64,000 nucleotides of DNA from Patescibacteria group bacterium (GTDB taxonomy: Bacteria; Patescibacteriota; Patescibacteriia; UBA1558; UBA10009): contig JBAZSE010000003.1 of NCBI GenBank assembly GCA_041662565.1, positions 108,636 to 172,635 on the forward strand, given 5' to 3'. How positions within the stretch are numbered: the first letter of the stretch is position 1; each line of letters starts with the position of its first letter. A model generated the notes under the pieces. That model made no database searches, was not told the origin of the DNA, and saw only the letters and a list, made by a program, of their open reading frames with translations. Of the stretch, positions 27,386-57,697 are shown piece by piece. The translations under genes were made by a program, and so were the position numbers.

Positions 27386-28474
27386 ATGCCCAATCAAAAT
27401 TTTAAAGCAATATACTTTACTGATTATAAAGAAATAAACCCTAACGGGAAAAGTTTTAATCTTGCCTTTGGAGATAGACATAAAGATTTGTATAAAAAAA
27501 TAGCGAATTTAGCCAGTAATGAAATAAGAAATTTACTGGGCACAAATTCTTTTATTGAATTAGAACAACGGGCTAAAAATGAAGGCCTACAAATCAATAC
27601 CTATTGTCTTTGGTATCTATTTAAAAATTTATACAAAGAAAATGTGGTGATTTTGCCAAAAGCTAAGAAAGAAAAAAATATTGATCAGTTTATCAATCAG
27701 GTTATTCAAGGTGATTGTCTGGAAGTAATGAAAGAAATTCCTTCAAAATCAATAGATATGATTTTATGCGATCTTCCTTATGGCACAACTCAAAATAATT
27801 GGGATAGCATTATCCCCTTGGATCAGCTTTGGAACCATTATGAACGCATAATAAAAGACAGAGGGGTAATCGTGTTAACAGCTCAAGGACTTTTCACCGC
27901 GAGTTTAATGATTTCTAATCCGAAAATTTTCAAATATAAAATTACTTGGGTTAAATCTAAGCCAACTAATTTTCTTAATGCTAAAAAACAACCTTTAAGA
28001 AAACATGAAGATGTTTGTATTTTTTATAAAAACCAACCTTTTTATAACCCGCAAATGACTCTTGGCGAACCTTATAATAAAGGTTTTCGCAAAGATCAAT
28101 TTACCGGAAGTTATGGTGAATTTAAAACCGTTGAGGTTAAAAGCAACGGCGAGAGGTATCCTACCGATGTTATTTATTTTAAAACCGCTGAAAGTGAAGG
28201 GCAAGTTTATCACCCGACCCAAAAACCAGTAGAATTAGGTAGATATTTAATTAAGACATTTACTGAAAAGGGGGATATTGTTTTAGACAATACTTGCGGT
28301 AGTGGTAGCTTCCTTGTTTCAGCAGTTTTAGAGGGTAGAAAATTTATTGGGATAGAAAAAAATGAAGAAGTATACCTTCATAAAAAACAAAAGGTGGATT
28401 ATATTGAGATCTGCAGAGAAAGAATTAAAGAGGCAGAGCGAGTTTATAAAGCTTCTTCCAGTAAACTATTTTAA
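27386..28474 (+). CDS. Site-specific DNA methyltransferase (N6-adenine or N4-cytosine), beta class
   Basis: Catalytic motif IV D-L-P-Y (ILCDLPYGTT) precedes SAM motif I (DNTCGSGSFLVSAVLEGRKFIGIE). This order defines beta-class amino-MTases. The region is AT-rich. A TATAAT lies 6 nt before the ATG. Confidence 0.8.
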   Translation: MPNQNFKAIYFTDYKEINPNGKSFNLAFGDRHKDLYKKIANLASNEIRNLLGTNSFIELEQRAKNEGLQINTYCLWYLFKNLYKENVVILPKAKKEKNIDQFINQVIQGDCLEVMKEIPSKSIDMILCDLPYGTTQNNWDSIIPLDQLWNHYERIIKDRGVIVLTAQGLFTASLMISNPKIFKYKITWVKSKPTNFLNAKKQPLRKHEDVCIFYKNQPFYNPQMTLGEPYNKGFRKDQFTGSYGEFKTVEVKSNGERYPTDVIYFKTAESEGQVYHPTQKPVELGRYLIKTFTEKGDIVLDNTCGSGSFLVSAVLEGRKFIGIEKNEEVYLHKKQKVDYIEICRERIKEAERVYKASSSKLF

Positions 28475-29409
28475 ATACCGCTATAGAGCTCCTCTTTAAG
28501 AATATCTTTAGCTCTTGCTAATTCAGCGTCTGTTAAGTGACCTTTTTCTTTGAGCCATTTTAGAAGATGAAAATATTGATTGGGGTGTAAAATTGGTTTA
28601 ACAATTTTCTCTAAACCAGTTTCATTTTTAATGAATTCCAAATGTTCTTGATTAAGAACCCCTCTACCTATAAGATCGTAGGTAATTCTTATAGCGTCAA
28701 CAAATGTTAGGTTTAAATCGCCTTGTTTTACTCTGTCTTTTTCAACATCGGGCATTTCAATACTTAGTAAATCTTCAATTCCCGATAAACCATTAAGATT
28801 GCGGTTATAAAGCTCAATTTCTTGACCTCTGTAGGTAAACCAAGTTCTGCCCTGTTCAGTTAAAGAACCGCGGGGCAAATAAACTCCTTCTCTGGCAACT
28901 CTTTCTTTAGAGACCCAACCGCAAACGTATAGAATCCATTTCCTCTGTCTTCTGGTGCCCGGCAAAGAACTTTTTTTCTTGCCGGGATTTTCTAAATGAG
29001 TTAATAAGTAAATATCGGCATCAAGCTGATCGTCGTTGATTTGACGAGCGAAAAAATTATGCTTTGCTTCTCTGGGAATACCATCGTCACTTTCATAAAG
29101 TTCTTTGAATGGGAGATTGCCACCACGACACTTAACATCAACCTTAATTCCAGAAGGCAATAAAATATCATAACCTAGCGGATGATTTTCTGGATTAATT
29201 TCCGGCATGCCTAGTTTATTTCTGACAACTATTTCTGCTAAAGCGCCAAAGCCCTGTTCCTCTATGTTTCCACGTTCAGCGCCAGTTCTATTTTGATTTT
29301 GCTCAATATATTCTGATGCTTTTTGGCGTAAGGCAAAACCTTCTTCACCTATTAATTTTATTACGATTGGTGTCGGATTCTTGTATTGATACATATCATT
29401 ATTAAACAA
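28471..29409 (-). CDS. Putative type II restriction endonuclease (PD-(D/E)xK fold), convergent with the MTase
   Basis: GYDILLPSGIKVDVKC matches the D-x(n)-(D/E)xK catalytic signature. Adjacent to and convergent with the DNA MTase. 312 aa. Confidence 0.5.
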   Translation of the reverse strand: MFNNDMYQYKNPTPIVIKLIGEEGFALRQKASEYIEQNQNRTGAERGNIEEQGFGALAEIVVRNKLGMPEINPENHPLGYDILLPSGIKVDVKCRGGNLPFKELYESDDGIPREAKHNFFARQINDDQLDADIYLLTHLENPGKKKSSLPGTRRQRKWILYVCGWVSKERVAREGVYLPRGSLTEQGRTWFTYRGQEIELYNRNLNGLSGIEDLLSIEMPDVEKDRVKQGDLNLTFVDAIRITYDLIGRGVLNQEHLEFIKNETGLEKIVKPILHPNQYFHLLKWLKEKGHLTDAELARAKDILKEELYSGI

Positions 29410-29419
29410 TTAAATAAAC

Positions 29420-30265
29420 CTATTTATTGCCATTGAGCTTGCCGTGCACTTTTTGAATCGCCTCACGGGCTTTGGTCGCTTTATCAGCCTTCTCTTTCTG
29501 TATAATTTTCTCGTCGAGAATCTGCTCAATACCTATTTTGATCGTCTCGAAATATTGTAGGCACTCATCCTCGGTAAGCTCATGTATTCCTTTGCTCAAG
29601 ATTGCATACAGCACTTTATTTTCTACGAGAAAATCAGGAAGGTTACTTTTAAGCATGCCTATTTTTTCGTCCATGCTTACTAGTTTATAATTATCCTCAT
29701 TAAATCCCTCTTCTTTTAACGAAAGCTCATGAGCCTCTTCAATAAGATTTTCAAAAACGCGACGAAGGTATACAAACGAACCAATCCCCACTCCGTGAGC
29801 AGCGACTCCTACGCCTCTTGTTAATTCTTTATATTGTTCTTCACCAAGGATCTTCCTATATTTTCCAACTTGTGGAATCTGAAAGTCTGCGACAGAAGGA
29901 AATTGTCCAACTTTTTGAAATTTATTTGTACCAGCAGCCGTAAAATAATAAGATCTATAACAATGACTATGATTATGCGCGCAATGCCAATTAAATTCTT
30001 CAAGCTTATTTTCTATTTGCGAAAGCCATTGATCAAATACCCACCTTGAGGAAGAATTAGATTTAAACACACTCTCTTTTTTACACCAGATACAATAAGC
30101 GTCAATCGTACCAGAAAAAGTTGTTAACTCATAAATTTTTTCTTTAACTTCCTTGATAAGTAAATTATAGGAACGATAAAGAGGCATTTCCAAATGAAAT
30201 ATTTTTGGTAATTCTAGGTATGGGTCATTTTGGATATTAATACTTTGTTCTTCTGAATTTTCCAT
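29420..30265 (-). CDS. Hypothetical Zn-binding protein in the R-M islet
   Basis: CxxC...NWHCAHNHSHC Cys/His cluster. Low-GC island context next to the tRNA. No confident family. Confidence 0.4.
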   Translation of the reverse strand: MENSEEQSINIQNDPYLELPKIFHLEMPLYRSYNLLIKEVKEKIYELTTFSGTIDAYCIWCKKESVFKSNSSSRWVFDQWLSQIENKLEEFNWHCAHNHSHCYRSYYFTAAGTNKFQKVGQFPSVADFQIPQVGKYRKILGEEQYKELTRGVGVAAHGVGIGSFVYLRRVFENLIEEAHELSLKEEGFNEDNYKLVSMDEKIGMLKSNLPDFLVENKVLYAILSKGIHELTEDECLQYFETIKIGIEQILDEKIIQKEKADKATKAREAIQKVHGKLNGNK

Positions 30266-32395: not shown

Positions 32396-33982
32396 TCAAC
32401 CCACCACTTCTCCGCCAAAGGCCTCTAAAACCGCTTCTAAACGATTTACTGGATTATCTTTAACTTCCTCTGCTTTGGCTCCAAATTTGCCATCAACTAA
32501 GCCGGTTAGTAATAACGTTCGGCCAAAAACCCTTTCAAAAACATTGTGGACGATTTCCAGGTACTTACTTTCTTTTATTCGTTCATAATGGAAATTAAAT
32601 TGAAAACCCACGGTAATCCTATCTCCTTCAATAGAGATGGGTTGGCCCACCTGCAAAAAAGCGGCTAGAGCATGATTGTATTCCCGCAAGGCCTCAATTA
32701 CATCGGGCCATTTATTTTTTACTTCATCAATGTTAATTGGATTGCCGGTTTTATTAACCGGTTTTTTTGTTTGGATATTTTCATCCTTTAAGGCGGGAGG
32801 AACAACGGGTGGATCCTTTTTTGAAGGTGGTTCCGGGGTAACTTCCTGTTTTGTCGTTACAGGCACAAAATCGGTAATAGCTGCGCTTTTGATAATGGCT
32901 ACTTCCAAAGGCAGCTGAATAATAGCCGCTTGCTTGATGGATGATAATGCTTCCAAGAAAATTTCCAAAACTTTTACCAAATCAGCTGATGATAAACGAG
33001 CGGTTGCTTCCACTATTTTTTTTAACCACTCTTCGCCCGCTTCCCAAACCAAATCATCCCAATGGTTGGTAACTTTGGAAAGCAAAATTTTACGCAAGGT
33101 TTCTACGGTAATTTTAGCAAAATGTTCCAAATCCAAACCTTCTTCAAATAATTGATTAACCAAAATTAAGGCCTCTTTGGTTTTGGATGATAACACCAGG
33201 GTAATTAATTCCATTACCTTTTGCCAATCATTCTTGGGCATAACCAGCGAAGCGGCTTCTTGATCGATTTCTTTTTCCCCAAGTGATAATACTTGGCCCA
33301 AAAGTGAAACCGCATCGCGCAAATAGCCATCCGAGGCGCGGGCGATATTTTCTATTACTTCACCGGTAATATTAACTTCTTCCTGCCTGGCAATACCGGA
33401 AAGATGCAAAATAGCGGCTTCATGTGGCACTTTTTTAAAATCAAACCTCTGACAGCGGGAAATAATGGTTTCGGGAATTTTATGGATTTCGGTCGTGGCT
33501 AAAATAAAAATAGCGTGAGCGGGGGGCTCTTCTAATGTTTTTAAAAGAGCATTAAAGGCCTCGTTGGTTAACATATGGACTTCATCAATTATGAAGACCT
33601 TGTATTTTTCCTTAACCGGCGTGTATTTGGTTTGCTCGCGTAATTCTCTAATTTCGTTAATACCTCGATTGGAGGCAGCATCAATTTCCACCAAATCCAA
33701 AGAACGGCCGTCTTGAATTTCTAAACAGCTGGCGCACTGGCAGCAGGGCTCAATGCCGGCGGACAAAACCGTGTCTGCTCCTTGCAGATTTTGGCAATTT
33801 AACGATTTGGCTAAAATTCTGGCAATGGTTGTTTTGCCAATCCCGCGCGGGCCAGAAAAAAGATAGGCATGGGCGATTTTGCCGGTTAAAATTTCATTTT
33901 GCAAAGTAACCTTAATGTGATTTTGACCGACTACTTCGGCAAACTTTTGCGGACGGTATTTACGATATAATGTTGTTGACAT
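32396..33982 (-). CDS. dnaX: DNA polymerase III subunit gamma/tau
   Basis: YRKYRPQKFAEVVGQ and GPRGIGKTTIARILAKSLNC (Walker A). Zn-module CQNLQG...CCQCASC. DEVHML Walker B. Confidence 0.9.
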   Translation of the reverse strand: MSTTLYRKYRPQKFAEVVGQNHIKVTLQNEILTGKIAHAYLFSGPRGIGKTTIARILAKSLNCQNLQGADTVLSAGIEPCCQCASCLEIQDGRSLDLVEIDAASNRGINEIRELREQTKYTPVKEKYKVFIIDEVHMLTNEAFNALLKTLEEPPAHAIFILATTEIHKIPETIISRCQRFDFKKVPHEAAILHLSGIARQEEVNITGEVIENIARASDGYLRDAVSLLGQVLSLGEKEIDQEAASLVMPKNDWQKVMELITLVLSSKTKEALILVNQLFEEGLDLEHFAKITVETLRKILLSKVTNHWDDLVWEAGEEWLKKIVEATARLSSADLVKVLEIFLEALSSIKQAAIIQLPLEVAIIKSAAITDFVPVTTKQEVTPEPPSKKDPPVVPPALKDENIQTKKPVNKTGNPINIDEVKNKWPDVIEALREYNHALAAFLQVGQPISIEGDRITVGFQFNFHYERIKESKYLEIVHNVFERVFGRTLLLTGLVDGKFGAKAEEVKDNPVNRLEAVLEAFGGEVVG

Positions 33983-34153: not shown

Positions 34154-34684
34154 TTATTTTTTTATCACATTTTCCACCGCGGCCCATTGGCTATCCACGC
34201 CCTTAGGCGTTAAAATAACCGCCTCATCCCCTTCTTCTCCCTTAAAATACGTAATACTAGCTAAAATTACCTTAAAAACCTTATCATCGCATAACACGCG
34301 GTAATCACCGGATTCATCTTTAATCACTTTACCCACCAACCGCTCCCTATCAACCGGCCCGATCTGCTTGTAAGTAAAATTACCAGCTTCATCGATTATC
34401 AGTTTTAAAATATCGCCCTCAACCAACTTTGATTTGGAAATATAATTGGCCGGAACCGAATATTGCTTACCATCCGGACCAATCATCTTTTGCCCGTCAA
34501 ACACGCCTTCTATCACCCGTGATTCATCGGTTTTAACCATTTCGGCCACCGTCGCGGCTTTGCTTAAATAATCCAAGCCCTGGCCTAAATTTAAACTGCC
34601 CCCGTTTAATAAAATTTTACATTTTTGGATTTGAATTTCAATATTTTCCAAAATTTGTTTTAATTCTTCAATATTATTTTCCAT
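34154..34684 (-). CDS. Hypothetical protein (N-terminal coiled coil)
   Basis: 176-aa ORF. No motif recognised. Confidence 0.4.
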   Translation of the reverse strand: MENNIEELKQILENIEIQIQKCKILLNGGSLNLGQGLDYLSKAATVAEMVKTDESRVIEGVFDGQKMIGPDGKQYSVPANYISKSKLVEGDILKLIIDEAGNFTYKQIGPVDRERLVGKVIKDESGDYRVLCDDKVFKVILASITYFKGEEGDEAVILTPKGVDSQWAAVENVIKK

Positions 34685-34792
34685 ATTTTTTATTATTATT
34701 TTTGTTATTTTTGAATTGTTTTTATTTTTGTTAACCTACATCAAATTTTTATTTTTCTCATCATCTTAAATATAACAACTGTGCCAAGTTTG

Positions 34793-35317
34793 TCAATACT
34801 GGTAAAGGTAAATCGGCTGAGAATGATTGCTTAGCCGTAAAACTTGCGCCGGCTCTTTATGCGGCAACTTAAAAGCGTACGAAACCAAGCGGGCCCCCGG
34901 TTTTAATTCTTTTTCCAATTTCGGTTCCAATTTATTCATTACTTCCGGCAAACCAAAACAATAAATTACATCCGCATCTTTTAAATCTTCAAAAAAATAA
35001 TTTTTACACAAAACGCGCAACCGCGATCTATTCGAACTGATAAAAAAATTTAATTTAGCCAACCAATAAGGCAATATGGAAATTTCATAACCAATTAATT
35101 GCCGAGCTTGGCTTAAGCTGGCTGCACGTTTAAGCCACCGGCCATCGCCGCAACCCAAATCATAAACAATTTCTCCAGGCTTAATTTTAGCCAAAGTAAT
35201 TGAAGCCAAGGTGGTTTTTTTAAAAGTCGGCACCCAGGGCGCGCCTAAAAAACCGGCCCTAATCATAGAGCCGATAACAATAATAAAAATGATGGTAAAA
35301 ATTAACGGGAGAATCAT
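34793..35317 (-). CDS. Membrane-anchored class I SAM-dependent methyltransferase
   Basis: N-terminal TM helix followed by VYDLGCGDGRWL (motif I, GxGxG). Confidence 0.65.
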   Translation of the reverse strand: MILPLIFTIIFIIVIGSMIRAGFLGAPWVPTFKKTTLASITLAKIKPGEIVYDLGCGDGRWLKRAASLSQARQLIGYEISILPYWLAKLNFFISSNRSRLRVLCKNYFFEDLKDADVIYCFGLPEVMNKLEPKLEKELKPGARLVSYAFKLPHKEPAQVLRLSNHSQPIYLYQY

Positions 35318-37888
35318 TTATTTACTGACCAATCGCATTCTGGCTAAAATTTCTGCTTCTACGGTTGCCCTATCGCGACCATATTTAAGGCGCGAAAGCT
35401 GTTTAACTTTTTCTACCATTGCTTTATCACCAGGCAACGGGGCAAACGGGGCAAAATTAAAAGCCCGAGCGTTTTGGCTATCAACCAACAGCTTAACGTA
35501 GGCATTAAAACGGGGAATATTGATTAAATCGTATTCGTTAAACACCGGCGCAAACTGCTTGGCCACCAATTCCGCATCATCAGGCCCGATACGAAAAGAG
35601 ACCATGGTGCCCACATTGCCAAAAACCGAATCTCTAATGGAAGTATCATTGCCTTTTTTTACCAATTGGCCGATGTACTGATGGGCAATAGTTAAACACA
35701 GTTTGTATTTTCTGGCTTCGGATAAAATAATGGCAATGGAATCCGTGATAAAATTCTGGAATTCATCAATATACAGATAAAAATTGGTTCGTTCGTTTTC
35801 CGGCACATCCACGCGCGAGAGCGCCGACATTAACAATTTGCCTACTACAACCATACCCAGTAAATTAGCGCTTAAATCACCAATTTTGCCTTTAGCCAGT
35901 TTAATAAGTAAAACTTTACGGCCATCCATAACTTCCCTAAAATTAAACGAAGATTTCTGTTGGGAAATAATTGGCCTAAGTAAATCCGAAGAAACAAAAG
36001 GCGTCAATTTGCTCGTTATGTAAGGCACCATATTGGCGAGTGCTGCTTCACCGCCGGCTTTTTCGGCTTCTTTTTCCCAAAAATCCTTAACCACCGGGTT
36101 AACACATTTGGATAATTTATATTTTCTAAAATTGGCATCGGCCAAAACCTTGGGCACTTCCAACAAAGTTGAACCGGATTCGGTATCTTCCATCATTAAC
36201 AGCATGGCGTTGCGCATATACTGTTCAAACATTGGGCCGCCAGTGGCTTTTAAATCATACAGTTTGTCAAAAATATTTATCATCTCGTTGATGACAAAAG
36301 TTTTTTGTTCCGGGTTGGTAAATTCCAACATATTCAAGGCAATCGGCCGCTCAATATCCGAAGGATCGAACAAAATAACATCATCAGCCCGCTCTGGCGG
36401 AATATGTTCTATAACAGCATCAACCAAATCGCCGTGCGGATCAATTACGCAAACGCCCTCGCCGTTTTTAATATCCTGAATTATCAGGTTGGCTTGAAGT
36501 ACGGATTTACCCGTACCGGATTTACCAATGATATACATGTGGCGCTGGCGATCATCGGTTTTAATGCGCACCGGAGTTTTAACTCCGCGATAAGTGTTTT
36601 CACCCAATAAAATACCTTCGGTTCCCATATTTAAAGGCGGTGCAGCTTTGCGGGCTTCTAGCCAATAAATATTCGGAGTTTCGGAAGTGGGTAGAGGTAA
36701 GTGCCATAAGCTGGCCATTTCTTCGGCATTTAAAATAACATTGTATTTGCGGATAAAAAAACGATGAATAAAATCGGAAACCAAGGTATTGATTCTGACA
36801 AATTTGGCTTTTTTAAAACCATTGCCGTATTCATAAACATTAAATTGGGAAAAACCATTTAAAATATTGGCCAAATAACTATTGGCTAAATCTTTGGTAG
36901 CCGCCGAAACAACCACTCTGATGTTAACATCCATGCCGGCTTTGCTGGTTTTTTCTTCAATACCTTTAACCGTTTCGCTTTCCATGGGCGATAAGCGATG
37001 CGCTGATTCGCTAGCGGTCAAATCATTTTTCTTTTTGGAAATAGAAATAAAAAACTTAAACACTCCACCGATAAAGGCAAAAAGCTTATCAAAAATATTG
37101 CCAAAGCCGGCTTTTCTTAAGGCCCCGGTTAATGTTTTGCCCTGTTGCATTTCGCGAGCCACGGTTACGCCCCGCCGATGCCATCTTTTATGCGAAGACC
37201 TGGCAACAAATTGAATAGCCGCTTCCCCACCGCCGGAAATATTTGCCAAAGCATTGGTTAAAGAATTAAGCGGATCGCTTTCCATTTTTTTGTAGGTTTT
37301 AATCGGAAAAATAAAATCCCTACCAAATCTTAAATATGCTCCGGTAATTACACCTTGGGGCGAAAAAATATTATAATCCTCCACTTCTTCCACTAAAGCA
37401 TAAGGCCAAGCCGAATGGATTTGCTGGGCCAAGGTTTCCTGCAAATAATCGGGTACGCTTAAATAAAAATAAATCTTGCCTTTGGATAATACAATTTCTG
37501 CCGAAAAATGATCTGTTCGGCCAAAAAGCCAATGTAATGGCCCCCGCTGGGCGCGCAGGCCGCCCAAAACCGAAAATAAATTTTCGGCCACGCCGATTTC
37601 TTGTTGCAGAGTTTGCGGAGTTTCTTCTTTATCCACTGCACCTTTGGGCTTAAATTTTTCTTTGGGCAATGAAACGATTAATATTTTTTGTGAAAGCCCT
37701 GCCGGCAAACGATTATGCCTTTCTAAAAACTTCCTGACAATCAATAAGCCAATCCAAATAATCAAAACAATACCTACGGCAATTAATAAATTTGCCAGCC
37801 AGGGATTAATTACAAAAAAATTAACTTGAGGGTTCGGCCCCAAACCGGAATCAATACTAAATTCAATAGCCAATAAATTTACCAGCAT
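35318..37888 (-). CDS. Membrane-anchored P-loop ATPase, VirD4/TraG-like coupling-protein or DUF87/AAA_10 family
   Basis: Two N-terminal TM helices. Walker A IIGKSGTGKSVL followed by VIDPHGD. Walker B LYIDEFQNF. 856 aa. Confidence 0.5.
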   Translation of the reverse strand: MLVNLLAIEFSIDSGLGPNPQVNFFVINPWLANLLIAVGIVLIIWIGLLIVRKFLERHNRLPAGLSQKILIVSLPKEKFKPKGAVDKEETPQTLQQEIGVAENLFSVLGGLRAQRGPLHWLFGRTDHFSAEIVLSKGKIYFYLSVPDYLQETLAQQIHSAWPYALVEEVEDYNIFSPQGVITGAYLRFGRDFIFPIKTYKKMESDPLNSLTNALANISGGGEAAIQFVARSSHKRWHRRGVTVAREMQQGKTLTGALRKAGFGNIFDKLFAFIGGVFKFFISISKKKNDLTASESAHRLSPMESETVKGIEEKTSKAGMDVNIRVVVSAATKDLANSYLANILNGFSQFNVYEYGNGFKKAKFVRINTLVSDFIHRFFIRKYNVILNAEEMASLWHLPLPTSETPNIYWLEARKAAPPLNMGTEGILLGENTYRGVKTPVRIKTDDRQRHMYIIGKSGTGKSVLQANLIIQDIKNGEGVCVIDPHGDLVDAVIEHIPPERADDVILFDPSDIERPIALNMLEFTNPEQKTFVINEMINIFDKLYDLKATGGPMFEQYMRNAMLLMMEDTESGSTLLEVPKVLADANFRKYKLSKCVNPVVKDFWEKEAEKAGGEAALANMVPYITSKLTPFVSSDLLRPIISQQKSSFNFREVMDGRKVLLIKLAKGKIGDLSANLLGMVVVGKLLMSALSRVDVPENERTNFYLYIDEFQNFITDSIAIILSEARKYKLCLTIAHQYIGQLVKKGNDTSIRDSVFGNVGTMVSFRIGPDDAELVAKQFAPVFNEYDLINIPRFNAYVKLLVDSQNARAFNFAPFAPLPGDKAMVEKVKQLSRLKYGRDRATVEAEILARMRLVSK

Positions 37889-37890
37889 GA

Positions 37891-38421
37891 TTATAATTTA
37901 TCCTTATCCATTTTCTTTTTAAAAGCCAAAATCCGATCGGCTTTAATTTTGGCTTCTTGTTCCAAAAAAAACTTATTTAAGCCCGGAATAATTTTAAGCC
38001 AATCCAAGATAAGGCGGAAAATCTCTTTAACTTTAACCTTGGCTGATTTAAGAAGAAGCGCTATCTTGGAGGCAGTTTCTTCTCCAACTTCTCTGAATTG
38101 CAATTGTTTTTCCGGAGTAAGTTTTAAATATTCTTGTTCCAACCCTTCGGCTAAAATGCCTTCTACCTGATAAAAAACCGGTGTTTTTACGGCGGGTGTA
38201 ATATCGTTAACTGATGGCAAGCTTTGAATAGCCGGATTGGTAAATTCGGATTTTTCCTGAACTTCGGTTGGCTTTTCTAACTGATTTGCCGGTAATTCCA
38301 CCGCCTGTTCCACAGTTTTTTCTACCTCAACTGTTTTTTTGCTTTCTGCTTGGCGATTAGGCAGATCTTTAAGTCCGGCTAAAAAACTTTCAATTTTTTT
38401 ATTAATTTGTTCCGGTTGCAT
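37891..38421 (-). CDS. Hypothetical acidic protein
   Basis: 176-aa ORF immediately upstream of, and co-directional with, the ATPase gene. Confidence 0.35.
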   Translation of the reverse strand: MQPEQINKKIESFLAGLKDLPNRQAESKKTVEVEKTVEQAVELPANQLEKPTEVQEKSEFTNPAIQSLPSVNDITPAVKTPVFYQVEGILAEGLEQEYLKLTPEKQLQFREVGEETASKIALLLKSAKVKVKEIFRLILDWLKIIPGLNKFFLEQEAKIKADRILAFKKKMDKDKL

Positions 38422-39680: not shown

Positions 39681-40094
39681 TTACTGGCTGAACACCACAA
39701 TTTCTTGATTCTTGGAAAAATACCTAATGGTGTAAGATAAGCCATCACCGCTCCAATACGATAATCCACTAACCTCACTTAGGTCAATAGATAGATCGCC
39801 CAAGGCCTCAACTAAAGCATTTTGGCTGGCCAACCCATCTGTTTTAACAATAGGATAGCTTTTGCGGGCAACGTAATACTCGGCTAGCTTTTTTTGCAAA
39901 GATTCAACCTCAACTCTGCGATAATCGCCTTCTTTAATAGCTACTGACTTTTCGTGGTCTATATTAGCCATTACACCGGTTGATATTAAACCGATTGTGG
40001 CTAAGATTAGCGGAATTACTACTACAGCAAAACCTTTTTGATTAGTCATAATATTACATTTAAGTAACCCGCCTATTATACTCCTTTTGGGCAT
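39681..40094 (-). CDS. Small membrane-anchored protein with a weak prepilin-like N-terminus
   Basis: Internal start gives MTNQKGFAVVVIPLILATIGLISTGV. The KGF + hydrophobic helix resembles a class III signal but lacks Glu+5. Confidence 0.3.
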   Translation of the reverse strand: MPKRSIIGGLLKCNIMTNQKGFAVVVIPLILATIGLISTGVMANIDHEKSVAIKEGDYRRVEVESLQKKLAEYYVARKSYPIVKTDGLASQNALVEALGDLSIDLSEVSGLSYWSGDGLSYTIRYFSKNQEIVVFSQ

Positions 40095-40168: not shown

Positions 40169-43100
40169 TTATGCCGCCAGAGCCAAAGTTGACGTTTCTT
40201 TGTTTAAAGGTAAAACATCTATATTTTTGGCGAAATCCTGGTTATACTTAAAGTAACTGTCTAAATCTATTTCCTTGGTAACGTAACCTAGCCGCAACGA
40301 ACCATCTGTTTCCAATTTTGGTTGAACTTGATTGCCTTGGCTATCAAAAAACTTTACATTTTGTGCCAGCCATTTATCATAAAGCTTAGAGCCATCCGAC
40401 TGGCGATCAGTGATGTGATTTTTATAAGCAGCTTTAAATTCTTCCACAATTTGCCTGCCCTGATATTTATGGCCTTCTATTTCCAATGTTAACTGATGCA
40501 AGGGCACCGGCTCTTGACCGCCTTCTGGCATTAAAGAAGCGGTTGAGGCATGGAACATGATAAATTGCTTATCAGGTGTAACGGTTAAAATAGCACCGTG
40601 GCCTTCAGGGCCATAAGTGGCCGCTCCGCCGGATTCCATGTTAATTAAATATTCTCCCGGCTCTAGATTTTCTTTAACTGTTTGCCAGGAAGCGTTATTA
40701 TATTTTAATTGCTGTTCACGCAAGAAAACCGAAAACTTTAATTCTTCCGGTTTGCCGGCATGGACGCTTAAAAACCGATTATAATCATCTAAAACAGGAT
40801 ACTCTCCCTTATTTTCCTTAGCCGCTTGCCTAACCAAAGTCATGCAATCAAATCCATCCTTGCCAACACTGTACGGCTTACCCACTTCATCCATCAAACT
40901 ATTGGCAATCTTATAACTTTCCGGCAAAATTGCGCTAATTGGTCCACCGGCCATAATTGATTCAATCTTTGCCCTATTAAAAACCTCATGTCCGAATTTT
41001 TTTTCTAAACTGTTTAATTCTTTTAAAATTTCCGCTTTAACTGCTTCGGCCTGGGCCTTATAACCGCCTTTAATTAAAGATTGATAAACATCAATATCTT
41101 GCATTAAATCTTTACCTTGTTCACGAGCATCGGTAATACTACCAATTAATTTATCGCTCTTGCCAGCTAAAATGCTCCGATAGCCTTCCTTTAAAATTTC
41201 ATCTCCGGTAATATTTCCGGTTCGCTGATGCAATATTTCCACTCCGATAACGCCCGAGCCCCGATTGCCATATCTAAAAGTTACCTTGGAAGAACCTGGT
41301 AAATCTGGATTGTGGGAAGTAAAAACAAAATCCCGACCTTCATTGCTGATTTGTATGCCCGCAACCTCATTATTAACATCATTGGGCTTTAATTCCTGCA
41401 ACGGGGCTTGAGCCGCTAATTTTGGGTCAGCACCCGATGTAGGCGCAACCTCTGCCTCATTAACACTGGTTGATCCGGTAACAGGAGCATTGGCGGGATT
41501 GGCGATTATCTCTTGAATTGGCGGTTTTTCGCCACGCAAATAATAAGGGATGTTTTCAAGCTCTTGATTAGTCAAAGTTCCGATATGCACTTCTTGGCCA
41601 TTTTGATCAAGAATGGAAAAATTATTTTGTTTTAGATTAAGTTTAATTACAAAATTATTAAAGTTATTTTTATCTAAAATCATTCCTCTTTCCCAAGAAA
41701 CCCATTTTTTTACCTTAAAAACAAGTTCGCTAGATAAACCACGAGTAAAATAAACTTCTTTAACATCAAAGTTTTTACCATACCATGATTTTTCAGATTC
41801 AAAACTTTCACCAAACAACAACTCGGTTGCCTTGGCCATTTGATCATCAGACATACTTGATAAACCATCTCTGTACTGCGCTAAGCCGGCAATAACAACA
41901 TCTTTTTCAAAACTTAAATTTTTGGTGTAAGAAGTAGCTTCAAAAGCCCTGGCAAGGCCTTCATTAATTTTAGTGCCAAATTCATAATTCAAACTATTGG
42001 CAATGGGCATAAATTCCGCCACCTGCGCGCGCTCGGCTTGAATATGGTAATCTTTAAACAAGGCCTCGGTCATGCGGTTTAAATTTTGGCTGGCACGGCT
42101 AATGCCACCGGCTAATTCCGCCAATTCCGGCTGTTCAAATTCTTTTGGTAAAGCAATGGTATAATAGGGTTTATTGCCTTTAACCGCTACGCCCACCATA
42201 TCTGCCACGCCATCGTCATTACTATCCTGATAAACCAATTCATCGGCCTTATTAACAAGTTCGCCAACTTTGTTGGCCTGCGCTTGAACTGCCTCAACAA
42301 TCAATTTATTTTGAGCTTCAATACTGCTAGCGTCTACCACTTTTTCTACTGGCGGATTAACCGTGTTTTGGACTGGTAATTCCGGGCTTGCTTTAACATC
42401 CGATGGCACTTCTTTAATCAATGGAAAACCCTTGATATCCCCATGATCCAAACCATCGGGTTTTAAATAAAAAACCTGTTCCGGCTGACCATCGCCGATA
42501 TTATCAACGGTAATTTTTAAATTATTACCTTCTGCCAAAAATTCTATATTATTAACCGTGCCATCAATCACATACTGTTTGCCCCCGGCTTCAATTATAT
42601 TTCCATCTTTAAGAACATAACCCCTCTCAGTCATAAATTGACTGACTTTGGAACTTAAGCTGCTGGCGGTTAAAGGAGTTTCCGGGGAAATAATAATCGT
42701 CGATAGTTCCTCCGGCATATGCTTTAAATCATAACCGACATTGGCAATTTGAAAATCCGTTAACTCAAAACCGTCTTTTTGTATATCAGGAATAAATAAT
42801 TTATTCTGTATGGTATGGAAAAGTACATCGTGAGGTGCGCTGCCCTTAAAAGACAGGCCTACAAAAGTTATCTGATTCGTGCCATCAAAAAATTTAATAT
42901 CAGAAGCGGAAAAATCATTATTCGCAAACAAGTCTCGAGCAAACATAGTTGCCTCGTCTTTACTAAAAGTTTCATGTTGCTTCATGGCCAAAATGCCAAG
43001 CCACAACTCATGTTTATAAGACAAAGATAAGCGCTCGGTTAAAGCAAGAGCTTCTTTAACTGAAAGATATGAGGCATCATTAACTTTTAAAAAGGCCTCG

Positions 43101-46100
43101 GAAGTCAATCGCAATTGCTGTTGATCTTTAGCTGCTTCTAAAATTTCCTTTATCTCCCCCATTGCCCATCCTCGATCCATCATTTTAGTGGCAATATCAA
43201 ATTTTGCCAAAGAATAAACATTTTCCAATTTAAGCAAATCCAGATTTTCCTTACCCAATTTGCCAACAAAATTATCAACCAAGGCAAAATCCGGTTTGGT
43301 TTCAAATAATTGGGTGGTATTACTACCTTGCCCGTAAACTTTGTAAAACTTGGCCGCTTCCAAACGATCGCCCGTTAAATGAGTGGCTAATTGGTTTAAA
43401 TTATCGCTAGTTGTTCGCGCCTGAGAAACAAGCTCTATGGCTTTATCATGGCTTAATTTTTCATCAAATTCTATTGTTTGATAAGCCAAGTTTGATTCAT
43501 CTCTAATTTCTAAATGATCAGGTATATTATCGCTATCAGCATCAATTAAATGCAAAGTATCACCATTGGGCAATTTAACATCCAGCCCATCCCATGGCCC
43601 AATTAAGCCCGTTTCTGTTGACGGAGGGTTAATGTGTTCGGCGGGAGTAACGGGATCGACTTCTGGAGTCACAATTACCCCGCCGGCGGTTCTTATACTT
43701 AACGCTTCATCCAACTTGGCCTTGGATGCGCCGTGTAATTCCTCATGCGCATCCCAATATTCGCGCGCTGCCTTGGCTTCATTGTAATTTAACTGTTCAT
43801 GCAAACCGCCTTCGGCTTTATCCAAATTAAATTCATTTTTAACTTCTTCCGGAATTTCATTTAATTTAAATTCTTTGCTGATTTGATCATAACGACCGGT
43901 TAAGCTTTCACCCGCCTCAACTTTAACTTCAGATGTTTTATATACAATAATTTCGCCCGACTTGGTTTCAATTACTGTATCACCTTCGTGCACCAAATTG
44001 GCATCAAAATCCTTAATTTCGGAACCACCAATGGTAATCACGGTAACTTTGGCATCCGGCGCCATGGCCTTATCCAGGGCTTCGGAAACACTTCCTTTGG
44101 CTGAAACAGTTCCACCGGCCATATAATCCTGATCAGCTGGCAAATGATCTTTAAAAGCCGGGATTTTTTCCAAATCAGCCAGCATATGAAATTTATGAGT
44201 CAATGGAACAGTTGGAGTTATTGCATCTACGGAAGGTTCTATTGGATCTTTTTCAGTTACTACTGACGAATCAATAACTTCCGTAATTCTTGAACCGGCC
44301 GGTAAATCAGGAGGTAATTCTAAATCCGCTTGATCTATTGATGGTAACTCAAGATTAGTTGTATCAGTAGATGGTAATTCCAAATCAACTTGATTTGTAT
44401 CAGGTAAAGCAACAGCGTTATGCGCAACAGATGTATCTGCAGGCAAAGATAGGTCTTTTAAGGGTTCATCAGTTAATTCGCTAGCAGTAGAATCAACCAT
44501 CGCCGCATCACCTTCGGCTACGGTTTGATTAATACTAGCCACATCAGCAGAAATGTCCTGATGAAATAGCCAATCCCTAACAACCGCACCGGCGCTGGCA
44601 AAGGCCGCGCCATAAAAAGCGCCCCATAACATTTTCTTGGTAACATACCTATCCCTAGCCTTATAAATTTTACCCTCGCGATAACTTAAAAATTTTTCCA
44701 ATCTTTTGGTAATTTCATTTTCAGAAGCAAAGCCTCCGGCTAAAGTTTCTCCGAAATTCAAAACATCAATCAATTCCTGCTGATTTATTAACCTCTCTCC
44801 GGCTTCACCAAAATTAACCAAGCCCTTATCCAATTTATCCTTAGTATATTCTAAACGTGCTCGCAAAGAATCTAAAACTTTTTGTATTTTTTGCTGAATT
44901 TCCGGATCATCATCCGAGAAAAAATCATCAATCTCATTAAATTCAATAATCAATTTATCCAATTTGGCAGTTAAACCCTCGGCCTTAACAAAATTTTTAT
45001 CAGCCGATAAAAGCTTGGCACGCTCTGTTTCCAATTTATCTCTTTCTTGCTCTAATTCTTTTCTTACACCAAATGGCATTATGTACTTATACACTTTGCC
45101 ATCCCTAATAGTAAAATCCTTATTTGTTTCTAAACTTCTTGTTAGCTCGCCTTTTAGCTTGGCTAAATCAATTTTTTCATTATCTGACAATTTATCTGAT
45201 TGCTGTTTTTTATTTAAGAAGATTATTTTGCTTATAATTTCATTTTGCTGTTGCAAATTATCTTTAATATTGCCAACTTCCGTTACCTCTCCCTGCCTAT
45301 AAATTGATGAATCCAAAGATCTTATTTTGGTTAATAACTCACTGGCTTTTTTATCATTAGTACTTTGGGCCAAACCTCTTCTGGTTTCAACATCTTTTTC
45401 TTCTAAACCCGCTTGAGCCCTTTTTCTGCCCAACCAGCCACCCATAACCGCAGCAACCACAGGCGCGCCAATCACTCCCCAGGCACCTATTGCAGCTGTT
45501 CTGGCAATAAAACCGGCAGCAAAATAACCGCCTCTTTCTTGAACCGTGCTGATTAAAGCCGAGCGCCAAATTTTATCCGAACCAATCCGGCCAAGCTCCT
45601 TTTCCACTTCCGGATTGGTATTTAAAAATTGCTGAAGCCGTAATTTATTTTCAATTTGAACTAATTCCAAAAGAGCTTCACTGTCAGCATGAGCGCGTTT
45701 AAATGATTCATCATTAACCAAAAATCGCTTGTAAACTGCGTAATTATCTCTTGCTTCACTGTACTGTTTCTGTTGTTTTTTTGTGGCAGTTGGTAAAGAC
45801 CATTCATACGGCAGACGACTTAACTCGTTAATGGCTTTATTAAACCCAATTAAAACATTTTGCCCATCTTTATCAATACCTTCCCAAGCACTTAGATAGC
45901 CCACTTCCAAACGGCCTTTTTCATCTTGGGCAATTTCCAATTGCGCGGTTTGCTTGACCAAATCCGCTAAAAGTTTTTTATGTTGTTCAAAATCGGCAGA
46001 AAATACTTTTTTAGCGCCGGCTGTTTCGGTTTTAGCAACGTAATACTGTTTAAATAGATTTTTCCAAAGCTTACCCGCCAAATTACTTTGACCAAGTTCT

Positions 46101-56329: not shown

Positions 56330-57565
56330 TTATTCAAATCTTAAGGCCTCAATCGGATCCAACTTAGCCGCTTTGCGGGCAGGATACAAGCCAAACACCA
56401 AACCGATCAAAACCGAAACGCCCACTGCCCAAACCAACGACATGGGCTTAACCACAAAAACCCAATTAAAGCCCTGTGAATTGGCCGCCAAGGAAACAAC
56501 AAAAGATAAACCAATACCGAAAATAATCCCAATGATTCCGCCGGTAAAGGTTAAAAATACCGCTTCCCATAAAAATTGCAGCATGATTTTGTTTTGGCCG
56601 GCACCCACGGCCTTGCGTAGGCCGATTTCACTGGTGCGCTCGGTTACCGAAACAAGCATGATATTCATAATACCCACTCCCCCGACAATTAAAGAAACTG
56701 CCGCGATGGCAATCAGCAAAAGCGAAATCCCACCCAAAATTTTATTTAAATTATCAATGGCATCAACCATTGTGGTTACGGCAAAATCTTCTTTATCAAC
56801 ATCGGTAATATTATGACGATCTCGCATTAGCAAATTAATGTCATCAGCCGTAGCGGCGGTTAAAGCGGGATTTTTTAATTTAGCCACGATAAAAGAAACA
56901 TGATCTATGCCCATGATTAATTTTTGCAAAGAATTGAGGGGCAGATAAATAAACTCATCCATGTTCATGTACATAATGGCGCCCTTAGAAGCCATAACGC
57001 CCACCACTTTAAAATTGTGTTTGCCGATTTTAATGCTTTTGCCCAGCGGATCGCTATCGCCAAAAAATTTGGTTTTGGCTTCTGATCCCAAAACCGCCAC
57101 TCTGGCTAAACTTTTATCTTCTTCATTGGTAAAAAACCGCCCCACAGCCACTTTGCCGGAATCAATATTTAAAAAGCTGGCCGTTGTACCCCATAACTGG
57201 ATAACATCGGAATCCTGATCAGTAACGGCTACGGCTTGACCCATAACCGTTGAATAAACATCTTTAATGTTTGGCGCCTTGGCCACAGCTTCGGCATCTT
57301 GGTTTTTTAAGGTGGTAATACTGGCCTGGCCCATAGCATTAGCCGAAGAGGCCTGGGCGGCCGAGGGCACTTTGGCTTCCACTTCAATAAAATCCGAACC
57401 CCAGCTTTCCACTTGCGACATAATTAAGCCCCTTAATCCTTCGCCAGCCGAAAAAACAATAATTACCGCCATAATACCAATAACAATACCAGCAATTGTT
57501 AAAAAACTTCGCAAGCGATTGCGCCACAAGGAAGATAAGGAAATTTTTATTATACTGAAATCCAT
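56330..57565 (-). CDS. ABC transporter permease, MacB/FtsX family (paralog 2)
   Basis: N-terminal TM, a large extracytoplasmic loop (MacB_PCD-like), and C-terminal FtsX 3-TM bundle. 411 aa. Paralog of 57698-58933. Confidence 0.8.
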   Translation of the reverse strand: MDFSIIKISLSSLWRNRLRSFLTIAGIVIGIMAVIIVFSAGEGLRGLIMSQVESWGSDFIEVEAKVPSAAQASSANAMGQASITTLKNQDAEAVAKAPNIKDVYSTVMGQAVAVTDQDSDVIQLWGTTASFLNIDSGKVAVGRFFTNEEDKSLARVAVLGSEAKTKFFGDSDPLGKSIKIGKHNFKVVGVMASKGAIMYMNMDEFIYLPLNSLQKLIMGIDHVSFIVAKLKNPALTAATADDINLLMRDRHNITDVDKEDFAVTTMVDAIDNLNKILGGISLLLIAIAAVSLIVGGVGIMNIMLVSVTERTSEIGLRKAVGAGQNKIMLQFLWEAVFLTFTGGIIGIIFGIGLSFVVSLAANSQGFNWVFVVKPMSLVWAVGVSVLIGLVFGLYPARKAAKLDPIEALRFE

Positions 57566-57600
57566 ATAGATTTATCTTCAGAAAATGACTAAACAGTGTA

Positions 57601-57675
57601 GGCGAGCCAGATAAAAATTTATTAGCGGGACGCTCGAGTACTCACGAAAGCTAATAAATTTTCATCTGGCTCGCC
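57601..57675. repeat. 26-bp near-perfect inverted repeat between the two permease paralogs
   Basis: ggcgagccagataaaaatttattagc (57601-57626) pairs with gctaataaattttcatctggctcgcc (57650-57675) with one mismatch. The loop contains the palindrome gagtactc. Confidence 0.6.
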
Positions 57676-57697
57676 AAACTTATTTGATATTTAAAAA

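Follow-up and report, generated by a model that had tools for sequence, protein, structure and literature searches.

A CPR-wide variant of the type IV coupling protein ATPase and its small partner proteins at a chromosomal locus of Patescibacteria

A large part of bacterial diversity is found in the CPR/Patescibacteria, which live attached to other microbes in ways that are still poorly understood. In the sole species with genetics, Southlakia epibionticum, the T4SS is essential, though its gene cluster is without a recognisable coupling protein (PMC10633639). Nearly every CPR genome has ‘orphan’ coupling-protein-like genes; of the 3035 Patescibacteria genomes in one survey, 2918 carry VirD4-type or T4CP-like genes, 5713 in all, and virB4 is close by for only 148 of these genes (Quinonero-Coronel et al. 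2025, PMC12102498). The locus described here is a row of four genes in a 64-kb stretch of CPR DNA (the window, referring to that whole stretch), whose 856-aa ATPase fits the orphan T4CP-like genes of the survey, as far as its available text describes them.

The four ORFs are co-directional, as an earlier note made from the sequence alone had reported, and fill exactly the interval that it gave (Table 1); its supposition of a CPR-type organism also proved correct. They are transcribed in the order A, ATPase, methyltransferase, D, and all four are genuine genes: homologues of the ATPase, and likewise of D, run into the thousands, and those of A and of the methyltransferase are found at the same positions in other CPR loci. 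Close packing is confined to the first three, with a gap of 2 nt between A and the ATPase and of 0 nt between the ATPase and the methyltransferase, whose start codon abuts the ATPase stop; D follows after 108 nt and behind a promoter-like site. Because this site sits past the end of the methyltransferase gene and ahead of the start codon of D, D, and perhaps dnaX too, may be transcribed separately. We treat dnaX as conserved context of the locus and do not claim it as a member of the machine; hrcA-grpE-dnaK-dnaJ lie upstream.

Table 1. Features of the locus and its downstream flank (window coordinates)
Feature	Position	Strand	Description or basis
Four-gene locus	34154-38421	all (-)	ORF list
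Partner protein A	37891..38421	(-)	176 aa; ORF list
Membrane-anchored ATPase	35318..37888	(-)	856 aa
DUF8128 (PF26449) domain of the ATPase	36599..37711	(-)	residues 60-430
Methyltransferase	34793..35317	(-)	174 aa; TM helix 1-19 and aKMT-type domain 26-172
Promoter-like site	34769..34796	(-)	TTGACA-16 nt-TATATT, TG ahead of second hexamer; consensus match only, 11/12 positions
Protein D	34154..34684	(-)	176 aa, acidic (pI 4.9)
dnaX	32396..33982	(-)	DNA polymerase III tau/gamma subunit; Pfam; downstream neighbour

The ATPase is built of a TM helix (about residues 33-51), DUF8128 (about 60-420), a TrwB/TraD-type nucleotide-binding domain (about 425-815) and a C-terminal helical hairpin (822-855), and its AlphaFold model has a pLDDT of 82.9. 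The Walker A motif GKSGTGKS (455-462), the IDPHGD motif (482-487) and the Walker B motif LYIDEFQNF (705-713) were read correctly in the earlier note and are invariant in 34 homologues. The two N-terminal TM helices of that reading reduce to one by hydropathy, homologue alignment and the AlphaFold model alike: residues 33-51 are the one strong TM segment (Kyte-Doolittle 2.9), the model has a single long helix at 29-65, and residues 1-30 are not hydrophobic, are variable among homologues and are absent in some. As positive charges come after the TM helix, the bulk of the protein is predicted to face the cytoplasm. Between anchor and motor sits DUF8128, an alpha/beta domain of about 360 aa with no relatives detected outside this ATPase family; its assignment here and in homologues comes from precomputed annotation, the model being missing from the local Pfam copy.

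The motor half is of the TrwB/TraD (T4CP) type. DUF87, TrwB_AAD_bind, T4SS-DNA_transf and TraG-D_C all score above their Pfam gathering thresholds, the second and last of these being families for which the earlier note had proposed a search, and hhalign matches the protein to TrwB from Walker A through Walker B (probability 94.8%, E 5e-8). The P-loop domain is that of the FtsK/HerA superfamily, and both of its Walker motifs are of the T4CP type; in the AlphaFold model the strands of Walker A and Walker B are separated by an all-alpha insertion (526-655), a stretch through which the hhalign and Pfam alignments to TrwB pass. The layout as a whole, which had been likened to that of T4CPs, is not canonical, since there is one TM helix in place of two and DUF8128 lies between anchor and motor; a two-TM N-terminal domain directly ahead of the motor is lacking. 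FtsK/SpoIIIE was rejected as an identity, the FtsK_SpoIIIE motor, four-TM N-terminal domain and gamma domain being absent, as was HerA, for which the combination of an N-terminal HAS barrel and the nuclease partner NurA was not found. The ATPase is a typical member of a large CPR-wide T4CP variant, and the family call of the earlier note is right.

More than 3000 homologues of the ATPase, all of the same architecture, were found, with at least 596 confirmed matches in GTDB species-representative genomes; DUF8128 forms 1704 clusters at 50% identity, and the 120 ATPase matches listed show full-length identities of 54-81%. Gene neighbourhoods were compared in 83 loci, each with up to 7-10 kb of flanking sequence and drawn from different CPR species. 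Neither the ORFs scanned in the 64-kb window nor the neighbour clusters conserved across the 83 loci include VirB4, VirB6, VirB8, other T4SS genes or a relaxase, so that the link to a T4SS-like envelope machine drawn in the earlier note finds no backing in gene order. That note had also asked whether the gene might be of FtsK or HerA descent with housekeeping synteny: the synteny is indeed housekeeping, but the best homology is to T4CPs. Matches to the TraD, TrwB and VirD4 families in Pfam and NCBIfam would suit a coupling protein of the classical conjugative kind, carried by a plasmid or an integrated conjugative element. We give that idea almost no credence: the NCBIfam scores lie far under the equivalog cut-offs (58.3 against 366 bits for SXT_TraD, 35.5 against 250 for CD1115 VirD4-like and 32.7 against 600 for CedD), and a mobile-element conjugation gene is effectively refuted by the missing element genes (relaxase, VirB4, integrase and mobile-element genes, among the scanned window ORFs and the conserved neighbours of the 83 loci), by a GC content uniform over the window and by the same housekeeping neighbours recurring across CPR classes. 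The ATPase family is core, apparently vertically inherited and CPR-wide, not part of a DNA-transfer gene cluster, and the locus is a chromosomal, widely conserved CPR module.

Directly upstream of the ATPase and on the same strand, homologues of A occur in 67 of the 83 loci, and A or A2 in 76 of the 80 that could be assessed. The upstream partners come in three unrelated types among CPR loci, so only the ATPase is universal. A is translationally coupled to the ATPase, and the pair forms the core of the module. The earlier note had described A as acidic, a property that belongs to D: A has an overall pI of 7.8; its N-terminal half varies and is acidic (pI 4.9), its C-terminal half is basic (pI 9.3), and the C-terminal ~95 residues are conserved and helical (F..GEETA...WLKIIPG.NKFFLEQEAKIKAD). 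No relatives of A were found in Pfam, NCBIfam or the PDB.

Protein D, found downstream of the ATPase in 49 of the 83 loci, had been taken for a coiled-coil protein. It does begin with one helix (2-26), but the remainder folds into two small OB-type beta-barrels (49-110 and 113-174), which answer to the definition of an OB fold as a five-stranded OB or S1/cold-shock-like barrel, and it carries the invariant motif EGVFDGQ.MIGPDGK.Y.VP.NY.SKSKLVEGD. A relationship to DotY was considered on a weak sequence match (E 0.11) and dropped, DotY falling outside the top 60 in the fold comparison.

The methyltransferase is, as the earlier note had it, a membrane-anchored class I SAM enzyme, with its N-terminal TM helix and the motif VYDLGCGDGR. 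Judged from its sequence, it belongs to the archaeal aKMT protein-lysine N-methyltransferase family: residues 26-172 match aKMT structures (PDB 5fa8, E 3e-24; 5jwj, E 6e-23), and the NCBIfam model NF041081 is matched at E 5.8e-24 with 84.8 bits, below its equivalog cut-off of 200. The entire catalytic domain aligns with the crenarchaeal enzymes, the VPxVPT and VYDLGCGDGR motifs are common to both, and the CPR enzyme differs in its extra N-terminal TM helix. The pairing with the ATPase, singled out as unusual in the earlier note, is no general feature, being present in 10 of the 83 loci; the enzyme is a lineage-restricted accessory that extends the module. PADLOC matches the ATPase to mad8 (7e-11) and the methyltransferase to mad2 (1e-12), parts of one system, which raises the idea of an anti-phage defence module resembling MADS, a methylation-associated defence system whose operon of eight genes, mad1-8, includes an N6-adenine DNA methyltransferase (bioRxiv 10.1101/2023.03.30.534895). 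We regard this as a very remote prospect. The remaining six mad genes are absent, the methyltransferase fits protein-lysine aKMT far better and over the full domain, a direct reading of its sequence finds no (D/N/S)PP(Y/F) motif of N6-adenine DNA methyltransferases, and it is confined to few loci; a near-universal, highly conserved ATPase in fixed housekeeping synteny is the opposite of a defence gene.

Taken together, we read the locus, at a probability of roughly 55%, as a coupling-protein-type membrane motor module with a core of small partner and ATPase and a substrate-threading role as follows. By analogy with TrwB and other motors of the FtsK/HerA superfamily, the ATPase would assemble as a six-subunit ring on the inner side of the membrane, where hydrolysis of ATP at the subunit interfaces would thread a polymer, most likely single-stranded nucleic acid, via the central channel. 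D may bind or present the substrate, A, for which other CPR classes have unrelated small proteins instead, would act as an adaptor or regulator, and the methyltransferase, where present, might methylate lysines on a membrane-proximal component. Proteins that bind nucleic acid seldom have a pI as low as the 4.9 of D, and no particular ligand follows from an OB fold by itself. A variant in which a protein translocase or unfoldase threads effectors or pilins, with D, as a coiled coil and two OB folds, making a collar on the ring in the manner of the N-domains of PAN and Mpa, two proteasomal ATPases, and with A-type partners as substrate adaptors, seems to us quite improbable.

As to what the motor serves, our preferred reading, held tentatively and at somewhat less than even odds, is that it couples or energises, as a detached ATPase, a CPR T4SS or pilus-like apparatus that is encoded elsewhere in the genome and lacks its own coupling protein. 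Against it, the ATPase gene is linked to virB4 or another T4SS gene in none of the 83 loci, and where classical T4CPs touch the channel with a two-helix TM domain, this ATPase has one helix and DUF8128. A T4SS-independent role is nearly as likely as a T4SS-coupled one.

The form of independence that we consider possible, though on the unlikely side, is a housekeeping DNA motor, a T4CP-type ATPase exapted for membrane-side chromosome replication, segregation or repair, in which D would handle ssDNA and the tie to dnaX or gyrBA would be functional. It draws on gene order: in 53 of the 83 loci a co-directional dnaX comes downstream, at only 7-33 nt from the ATPase when D is missing, gyrB-gyrA follow directly in a Saccharimonadia-like locus (L085), and the other conserved neighbours are housekeeping genes as well (dnaJ, and in other species cysS, corA and dus). 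Yet gene order in small genomes can persist without a functional link, neither dnaX nor D is adjacent to the ATPase in Paceibacteria-type loci, and no T4CP has yet been shown in such a role. The available text of the survey adds that T4CP-like genes are found in more genomes (2918) than VirB4 (2417), so some of them may work without a T4SS, and its authors leave exaptation open (PMC12102498).

Genetic evidence comes from S. epibionticum, for which that available text names as homologue the non-essential SEML1_0293 only (PMC12102498). SEML1_0142 is likely a member of the ATPase family by synteny, length and domain layout, the tie being made through a relative (P0514) with 36% full-length identity and a matching gene order. 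In published Tn-seq, SEML1_0142 is scored as essential at all three time points, which counts for the module reading given above; that it is so already at the first, when T4SS genes are scored as growth-defective, favours the housekeeping motor. A replacement for FtsK it is not, as this species has a true, essential FtsK (SEML1_0096).

A further, rather improbable alternative is a DNA-uptake motor that pulls in incoming ssDNA with ComEC or a reversed T4SS channel, D coating the strand, and so supplies nucleotides to bacteria that lack nucleotide synthesis. The ancestry of the family among DNA translocases, the OB fold of D and a match to the archaeal DNA-import ATPase CedD (E 3e-8, far under the cut-off) speak for it, but none of the 83 loci has an adjacent competence gene, and the T4SS-based importers known to us (ComB, Ced) work without a T4CP. 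Natural competence of CPR bacteria (PMC10633639) also counts in its favour, and against it counts that ComEC is dispensable in S. epibionticum (PMC12857230), yet the presumed family member SEML1_0142 is essential.

The window ATPase is an ordinary member of an uncharacterised family with its own small partner proteins; its homologues are named T4SS DNA-binding proteins (NCBI), and its N-terminal domain is a DUF (Pfam). The locus gives one orphan family, probably with an essential member in S. epibionticum, its defining traits, namely a distinct architecture, dedicated partners and fixed synteny by dnaX or gyrBA, and so turns a survey observation into testable hypotheses on partner binding, substrate and a possible docking of the motor on the T4SS. 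More speculatively, and in our estimate with fairly low odds, the ATPase, a swappable adaptor and the helix-double-OB protein might be an unrecognised essential CPR machine, a T4CP-derived motor uncoupled from conjugation that carries nucleic acid of the host or of the cell itself, or some other polymer, along the membrane or across it; in one version it would supply the essential CPR T4SS or pilus with the ATPase that it lacks for energising or recruitment, possibly importing. DUF8128 might be a relic of a VirB4-like N-terminal domain.

Among the nearest known systems are the T4CP-like genes of the survey; in its available text the DUF8128-bearing family is not separated from canonical T4CP-like genes, and the upstream partner, the OB-fold protein and the dnaX/gyrBA synteny are undescribed (PMC12102498). 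The VirB4 ATPases (TrwK of R388, PrgJ of pCF10 and VirB4 of T. pseudethanolicus) count among the closest relatives in kind, and if DUF8128 is a VirB4-like relic, the ATPase family would be an evolutionary intermediate between VirB4 and T4CPs. The Legionella DotL coupling complex (DotL-DotM-DotN-IcmSW-LvgA-DotY-DotZ) has partners unrelated to those described here, where there is no Dot/Icm system. From TrwB of plasmid R388 and the TraD-type T4CPs, which have two TM helices, the window ATPase differs in its single helix and the 360-aa DUF8128 between anchor and motor, in lacking nearby relaxase and T4SS genes, in being chromosomal, apparently vertically inherited and near-universal in the phylum, and in having private small partners, A or A2 and D.

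The gene cluster is real: as the earlier note had it, four co-directional ORFs, all on the minus strand, occupy 34154-38421. Only 2 nt separate the stop codon of the upstream 176-aa partner, A, from the start of the ATPase (TAA-tc-ATG), and the methyltransferase start directly abuts the ATPase stop codon (TAA/ATG); these three genes look translationally coupled. The fourth gene, D, follows a gap of 108 nt containing a sequence that resembles a promoter (TTGACA-16 nt-TATATT, in agreement with the consensus at 11 of 12 positions), with a further 171 nt between D and the downstream dnaX.

Features of the window (nucleotide positions) and of the AlphaFold2 model of the ATPase (residues)
Feature	Position	Strand	Description
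A	38421-37891	-	176-aa ORF, first in transcription order
ATPase	37888-35318	-	856-aa ORF, second
Methyltransferase	35317-34793	-	174-aa ORF, third
D	34684-34154	-	176-aa ORF, fourth
137-aa ORF	39681-40094	-	prepilin-like N-terminus
Promoter-like site	40102-40075		perfect TTGACA-16-TATAAT
2591-aa ORF	40169-47944	-	between dnaJ and module
917-aa ORF	47995-50748	-	between dnaJ and module
DNA methylase stretch	27386-30265		362-aa (+), 312-aa (-) and 281-aa (-) ORFs
MreB paralogues	2682-3695; 7573-8616		
MacB/FtsX-type permeases	56330-58933		tandem, 411 aa each
237-aa ORF	59014-59727		between permeases and HlyD-type gene
HlyD-type gene	59734-61401		membrane-fusion protein
ATPase model	29-65		one long helix
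ATPase model	about 67-395		alpha/beta domain; disordered loop 281-293
ATPase model	426-815		RecA-like domain
ATPase model	526-655		all-helical insertion inside RecA-like domain
ATPase model	822-855		C-terminal helical hairpin

The ATPase combines a TrwB/TraD-type motor, a family-specific domain and a single anchor helix. The motifs reported earlier (GKSGTGKS 455-462, IDPHGD 482-487, LYIDEFQNF 705-713) are present, and invariant among 34 homologues; the suggested Pfam search matches residues 434-774 to DUF87, TrwB_AAD_bind, T4SS-DNA_transf and TraG-D_C, all above their gathering scores. Matches to NCBIfam models are all below threshold, the top one being SXT-type TraD (5e-16, 58 bits vs a cut-off of 366). 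A profile of the family matches R388 TrwB with 94.8% probability (E 5e-8), running from Walker A through an all-alpha region to Walker B, as against 7% for TrwK/VirB4 and 1% each for PrgJ/VirB4 and the Gram-positive VirD4-like PcfC. The model (pLDDT 82.9, pTM 0.70) was compared with known motors, giving 23.1 for the VirB4 C-terminal domain (4ag5), 22.9 for both TrwB and HerA, 22.3 for the DndH C-terminal domain, 21.4 for DotL, 20.9 for Cag-beta and 16.5 for FtsK; by structure the motor thus falls in the VirB4/T4CP/HerA clade, and by sequence on the TrwB/TraD side of it. The two N-terminal TM helices originally proposed reduce to one, at residues 33-51 (Kyte-Doolittle 2.9), residues 1-30 being non-hydrophobic and variable or missing among homologues. 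Positive charges after this helix (RKFLERHNR) suggest a cytoplasmic location for most of the protein.

Between anchor and motor, residues ~60-420 carry the precomputed label DUF8128 (PF26449). Used by itself as the query on a set of 1.84 billion representative proteins, the domain matched 1704 clusters at E <=1e-3 and 777 at <=1e-10; it always sits at ~50-420 of the target among the best 150 of the 1704, and is confined to this ATPase architecture among the matches inspected. Full-length targets among the matches listed span 800-870 aa, apart from a subset that measures 940-1420 aa, and a PDB sequence search found no relative of the domain. The window ATPase is a typical member of its family. 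More than 3000 homologues were scored, the best 120 listed are full length at 54-81% identity, and at least 600 stretches from GTDB species representatives matched, of which at least 596 were confirmed. All sources of the 120 are named as Patescibacteria groups except one Bipolaricaulota-labelled MAG, and the groups among the homologues include Komeili-, Falkow-, Buchanan-, Uhr-, Magasanik-, Kerfeld-, Moran-, Pace- and Portnoybacteria. Many species-representative MAGs from 'binchicken' co-assemblies (L003, L009, L014, L052, L054 and others) have record titles that read 'uncultured Gammaproteobacteria' or 'Saccharibacteria', yet their genes are of CPR type and most closely related to those of Komeili-, Pace- and Parcubacteria (Paceibacteria for L054); such titles are unreliable as taxonomy.

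Comparison of 83 loci (80 from species representatives, two from long contigs, and that of the window) revealed private, tightly linked partners. Directly upstream of the ATPase, on the same strand, is a small gene that usually overlaps it or lies within 20 nt. This is A in 67 loci, with ~95 conserved C-terminal residues (F.xKGEETA...WLK.IPGVNKFFLEQEAKIK), and a second type, A2, in nine loci of one clade of Paceibacteria and Moranbacteria (L052-L054, L061, L069, L072, L075, L077, L078), of 141-174 aa and ending in ...HA(V/I)KVA.HL.DNY.LD..HD.L...E.H.AL..KGLIKEL; of the 80 loci whose upstream sequence is long enough, 76 have one or the other. No similarity between A and A2 was detected by hhalign, and a third type of 210 aa, in a Saccharimonadia-like locus (L085, 7364-7996), is unrelated to both; a low-complexity N-terminal half is common to all types. 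At a single locus (L044, 3694-6726) A and the ATPase share a 1010-aa reading frame, which may reflect a sequencing error or a stop codon lost in assembly and, if genuine, would argue for a physical interaction of the two. In the Paceibacteria-type loci L075, L077, L078, L069 and L072, two more proteins recur upstream of A2 and the ATPase, one large and highly charged, of 440-1060 aa, the other a DUF5663 protein of ~100 aa; both may be further lineage-specific partners.

On the other side, D lies downstream of the ATPase in 49 of the 83 loci. In its model (pLDDT 87) an N-terminal helix (2-26) precedes two small beta-barrels (49-110, 113-174), making D a predicted OB-fold partner; invariant residues include the aromatics F62, Y75 and Y81 and the basic K84, K86, K106 and R113, despite which the protein is acidic overall (pI 4.9). 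Its about 8000 homologues are, every one, unnamed and without a Pfam family. Kinship with DotY was dismissed, a weak sequence match (E 0.11) being unsupported by fold comparison. The paired barrels bear on a reading in which the ATPase threads protein, with D as a PAN/Mpa-like collar, which we regard as improbable beside the DNA-handling and secretion readings discussed below.

The methyltransferase is a lineage-restricted accessory. The pairing noted earlier as unusual does not generalise, being found in 10 of 83 loci, which are scattered over three or four parts of the ATPase tree; in eight of the ten it sits exactly between ATPase and D. After a TM helix (1-19), its domain (26-172) aligns entirely to the crenarchaeal protein-lysine methyltransferase aKMT (PDB 5fa8, 5jwj; E 3e-24), with a match to NCBIfam NF041081 at 5.8e-24, under the model cut-off. 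Direct reading of the sequence finds no (D/N/S)PP(Y/F) motif of amino-DNA methyltransferases, and the protein is best described as a membrane-tethered, aKMT-like predicted protein-lysine methyltransferase. That it is tightly coupled to the ATPase in several sub-lineages hints at a substrate close by. A defence module akin to the MADS anti-phage system was considered, as PADLOC matches the ATPase to mad8 (7e-11) and the methyltransferase to mad2 (1e-12). These matches suggest that mad8 and the methyltransferase domain of mad2 belong to the same broad families as the two window proteins, but were judged generic domain similarity; such a module is very unlikely.

The T4SS-like context envisaged earlier did not materialise: the window ORFs scanned include no VirB4, VirB6, VirB8, relaxase or integrase family, and no T4SS component recurs in any of the 83 loci. 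Instead, housekeeping synteny is fixed. Same-strand dnaX lies downstream in 53 of 83 loci, beginning 7-33 nt past the ATPase in those without D. The neighbourhood also repeatedly holds cysS (34 loci), an opposite-strand corA (23), a dus-like gene (14), dnaJ (9) and the ribosomal protein L27 gene (9), with the names cysS, dus-like and L27 assigned by reading sequences and cysS also backed by a tRNA-synt_1e match. On this synteny a conjugative element was rejected as the source of the genes, and it is a very unlikely one. A DNA-handling role independent of any T4SS ranks a close second to the T4SS-coupled reading, and is itself somewhat unlikely.

The window is ordinary chromosome, with a uniform GC of 0.36-0.43. 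Upstream of the module on the same strand are hrcA, grpE, hsp20, dnaK and dnaJ, followed by the 917-aa and 2591-aa ORFs and two small exported or membrane proteins; on the downstream side, dnaX is accompanied by genes for a Na+/H+ exchanger, a DNA methylase and Nramp and by metabolic genes, and elsewhere are mreB, mreC, a penicillin-binding protein of PBP2 type, a class II tRNA synthetase, RRF, holB, recJ and MacB-type transporters. The 2591-aa ORF has internal hydrophobic segments and the 917-aa ORF is very acidic (pI 4.6); both gave zero matches in Pfam, NCBIfam and PDB, and they and a 194-aa gene are not conserved as ATPase neighbours across the compared loci. An NlpC/P60-like Cys/His motif was seen by eye at the 2591-aa C-terminus; sequence searches of Pfam, NCBIfam and PDB were empty and did not confirm a peptidase. 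Of 58 loci whose sequence extends far enough upstream, 25 likewise have a same-strand ORF of at least 600 aa there. The 137-aa ORF begins MTNQKG/FAVVVIPLIL..., lacking the usual Glu at +5, and has a homologue (28% identity) upstream of the ATPase in L001; its real start is probably Met16, because the perfect promoter-like site overlaps the annotated one. Farther off, an N6/N4 DNA methylase converges on the 312-aa and 281-aa ORFs, which are without database match; this stretch, amid housekeeping genes, may be an islet of restriction-modification or of another kind of defence. The two MreB paralogues, mreC and the PBP2-type transpeptidase are grouped closely, giving this CPR genome a complete set of rod-shape genes, and the 237-aa ORF that adjoins the tandem permeases may be the ABC ATPase.

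Such genes are already known, in that they are counted in surveys and named in databases. A survey of 3035 Patescibacteria genomes (Quinonero-Coronel et al. 2025, PMC12102498) reports VirB4 in 2417 genomes and 5713 VirD4-type T4CP homologues in 2918, only 148 of these near virB4; relaxases are rare, and its authors state that t4cp exaptation "cannot be ruled out". Neither a coupling protein nor a relaxase is recognisable in the essential T4SS cluster of Southlakia epibionticum (Wang et al. 2023, PMC10633639). The supplementary tables of that study hold two T4CP-like genes, SEML1_0293 (921 aa, Pfam TrwB_AAD_bind, Tn-seq non-essential at 3/3 time points) and SEML1_0142 (1019 aa, P-loop domain 381-800, essential at 3/3); SEML1_0141 (139 aa), 13 nt upstream of the latter, showed a growth defect and was then essential twice (PMC10633639). 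A 994-aa DUF8128 protein (P0514), whose cluster counts 336 members, shares 36% identity with the window ATPase over 26-851, and its locus runs ComM-like Mg-chelatase gene, small membrane protein, small protein, ATPase, gyrB, gyrA, the order of SEML1_0138 (K07391), 0140, 0141, 0142 ... 0145 (gyrB). From this shared gene order we infer that SEML1_0142, not SEML1_0293, is the S. epibionticum family member, through which the family would be essential. Replacement of FtsK is ruled out, as S. epibionticum has a true FtsK, scored essential at the two later time points; ComEC is dispensable there (PMC10633639), and DNA import by the ATPase is improbable. No paper turned up in a full-text search for 'DUF8128', and the literature searched, as far as its text was accessible, does not describe the family as separate from canonical T4CP-like genes, nor its partner genes, its dnaX/gyrBA synteny or its probable link to an essential gene.

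Our preferred reading, tentatively held at a probability of roughly 0.4, is that the protein serves to couple or energise the CPR T4SS-like apparatus, from whose genes its own has become detached. It would form a hexameric ring at the membrane and thread a polymer, probably single-stranded nucleic acid, with D as a substrate-binding partner and A as an adaptor or regulator. The original assignment to the T4CPs holds, on the strength of the TrwB/TraD-type motor. Two of the features that define T4CPs are missing, however: the membrane domain has one helix in place of two, and the window ORFs scanned and the 83 loci compared show no link to a T4SS or a relaxase. The protein is predicted to work like a T4CP, yet misses all curated equivalog thresholds, and is best filed as a distinct, CPR-specific T4CP variant, DUF8128-T4CP.
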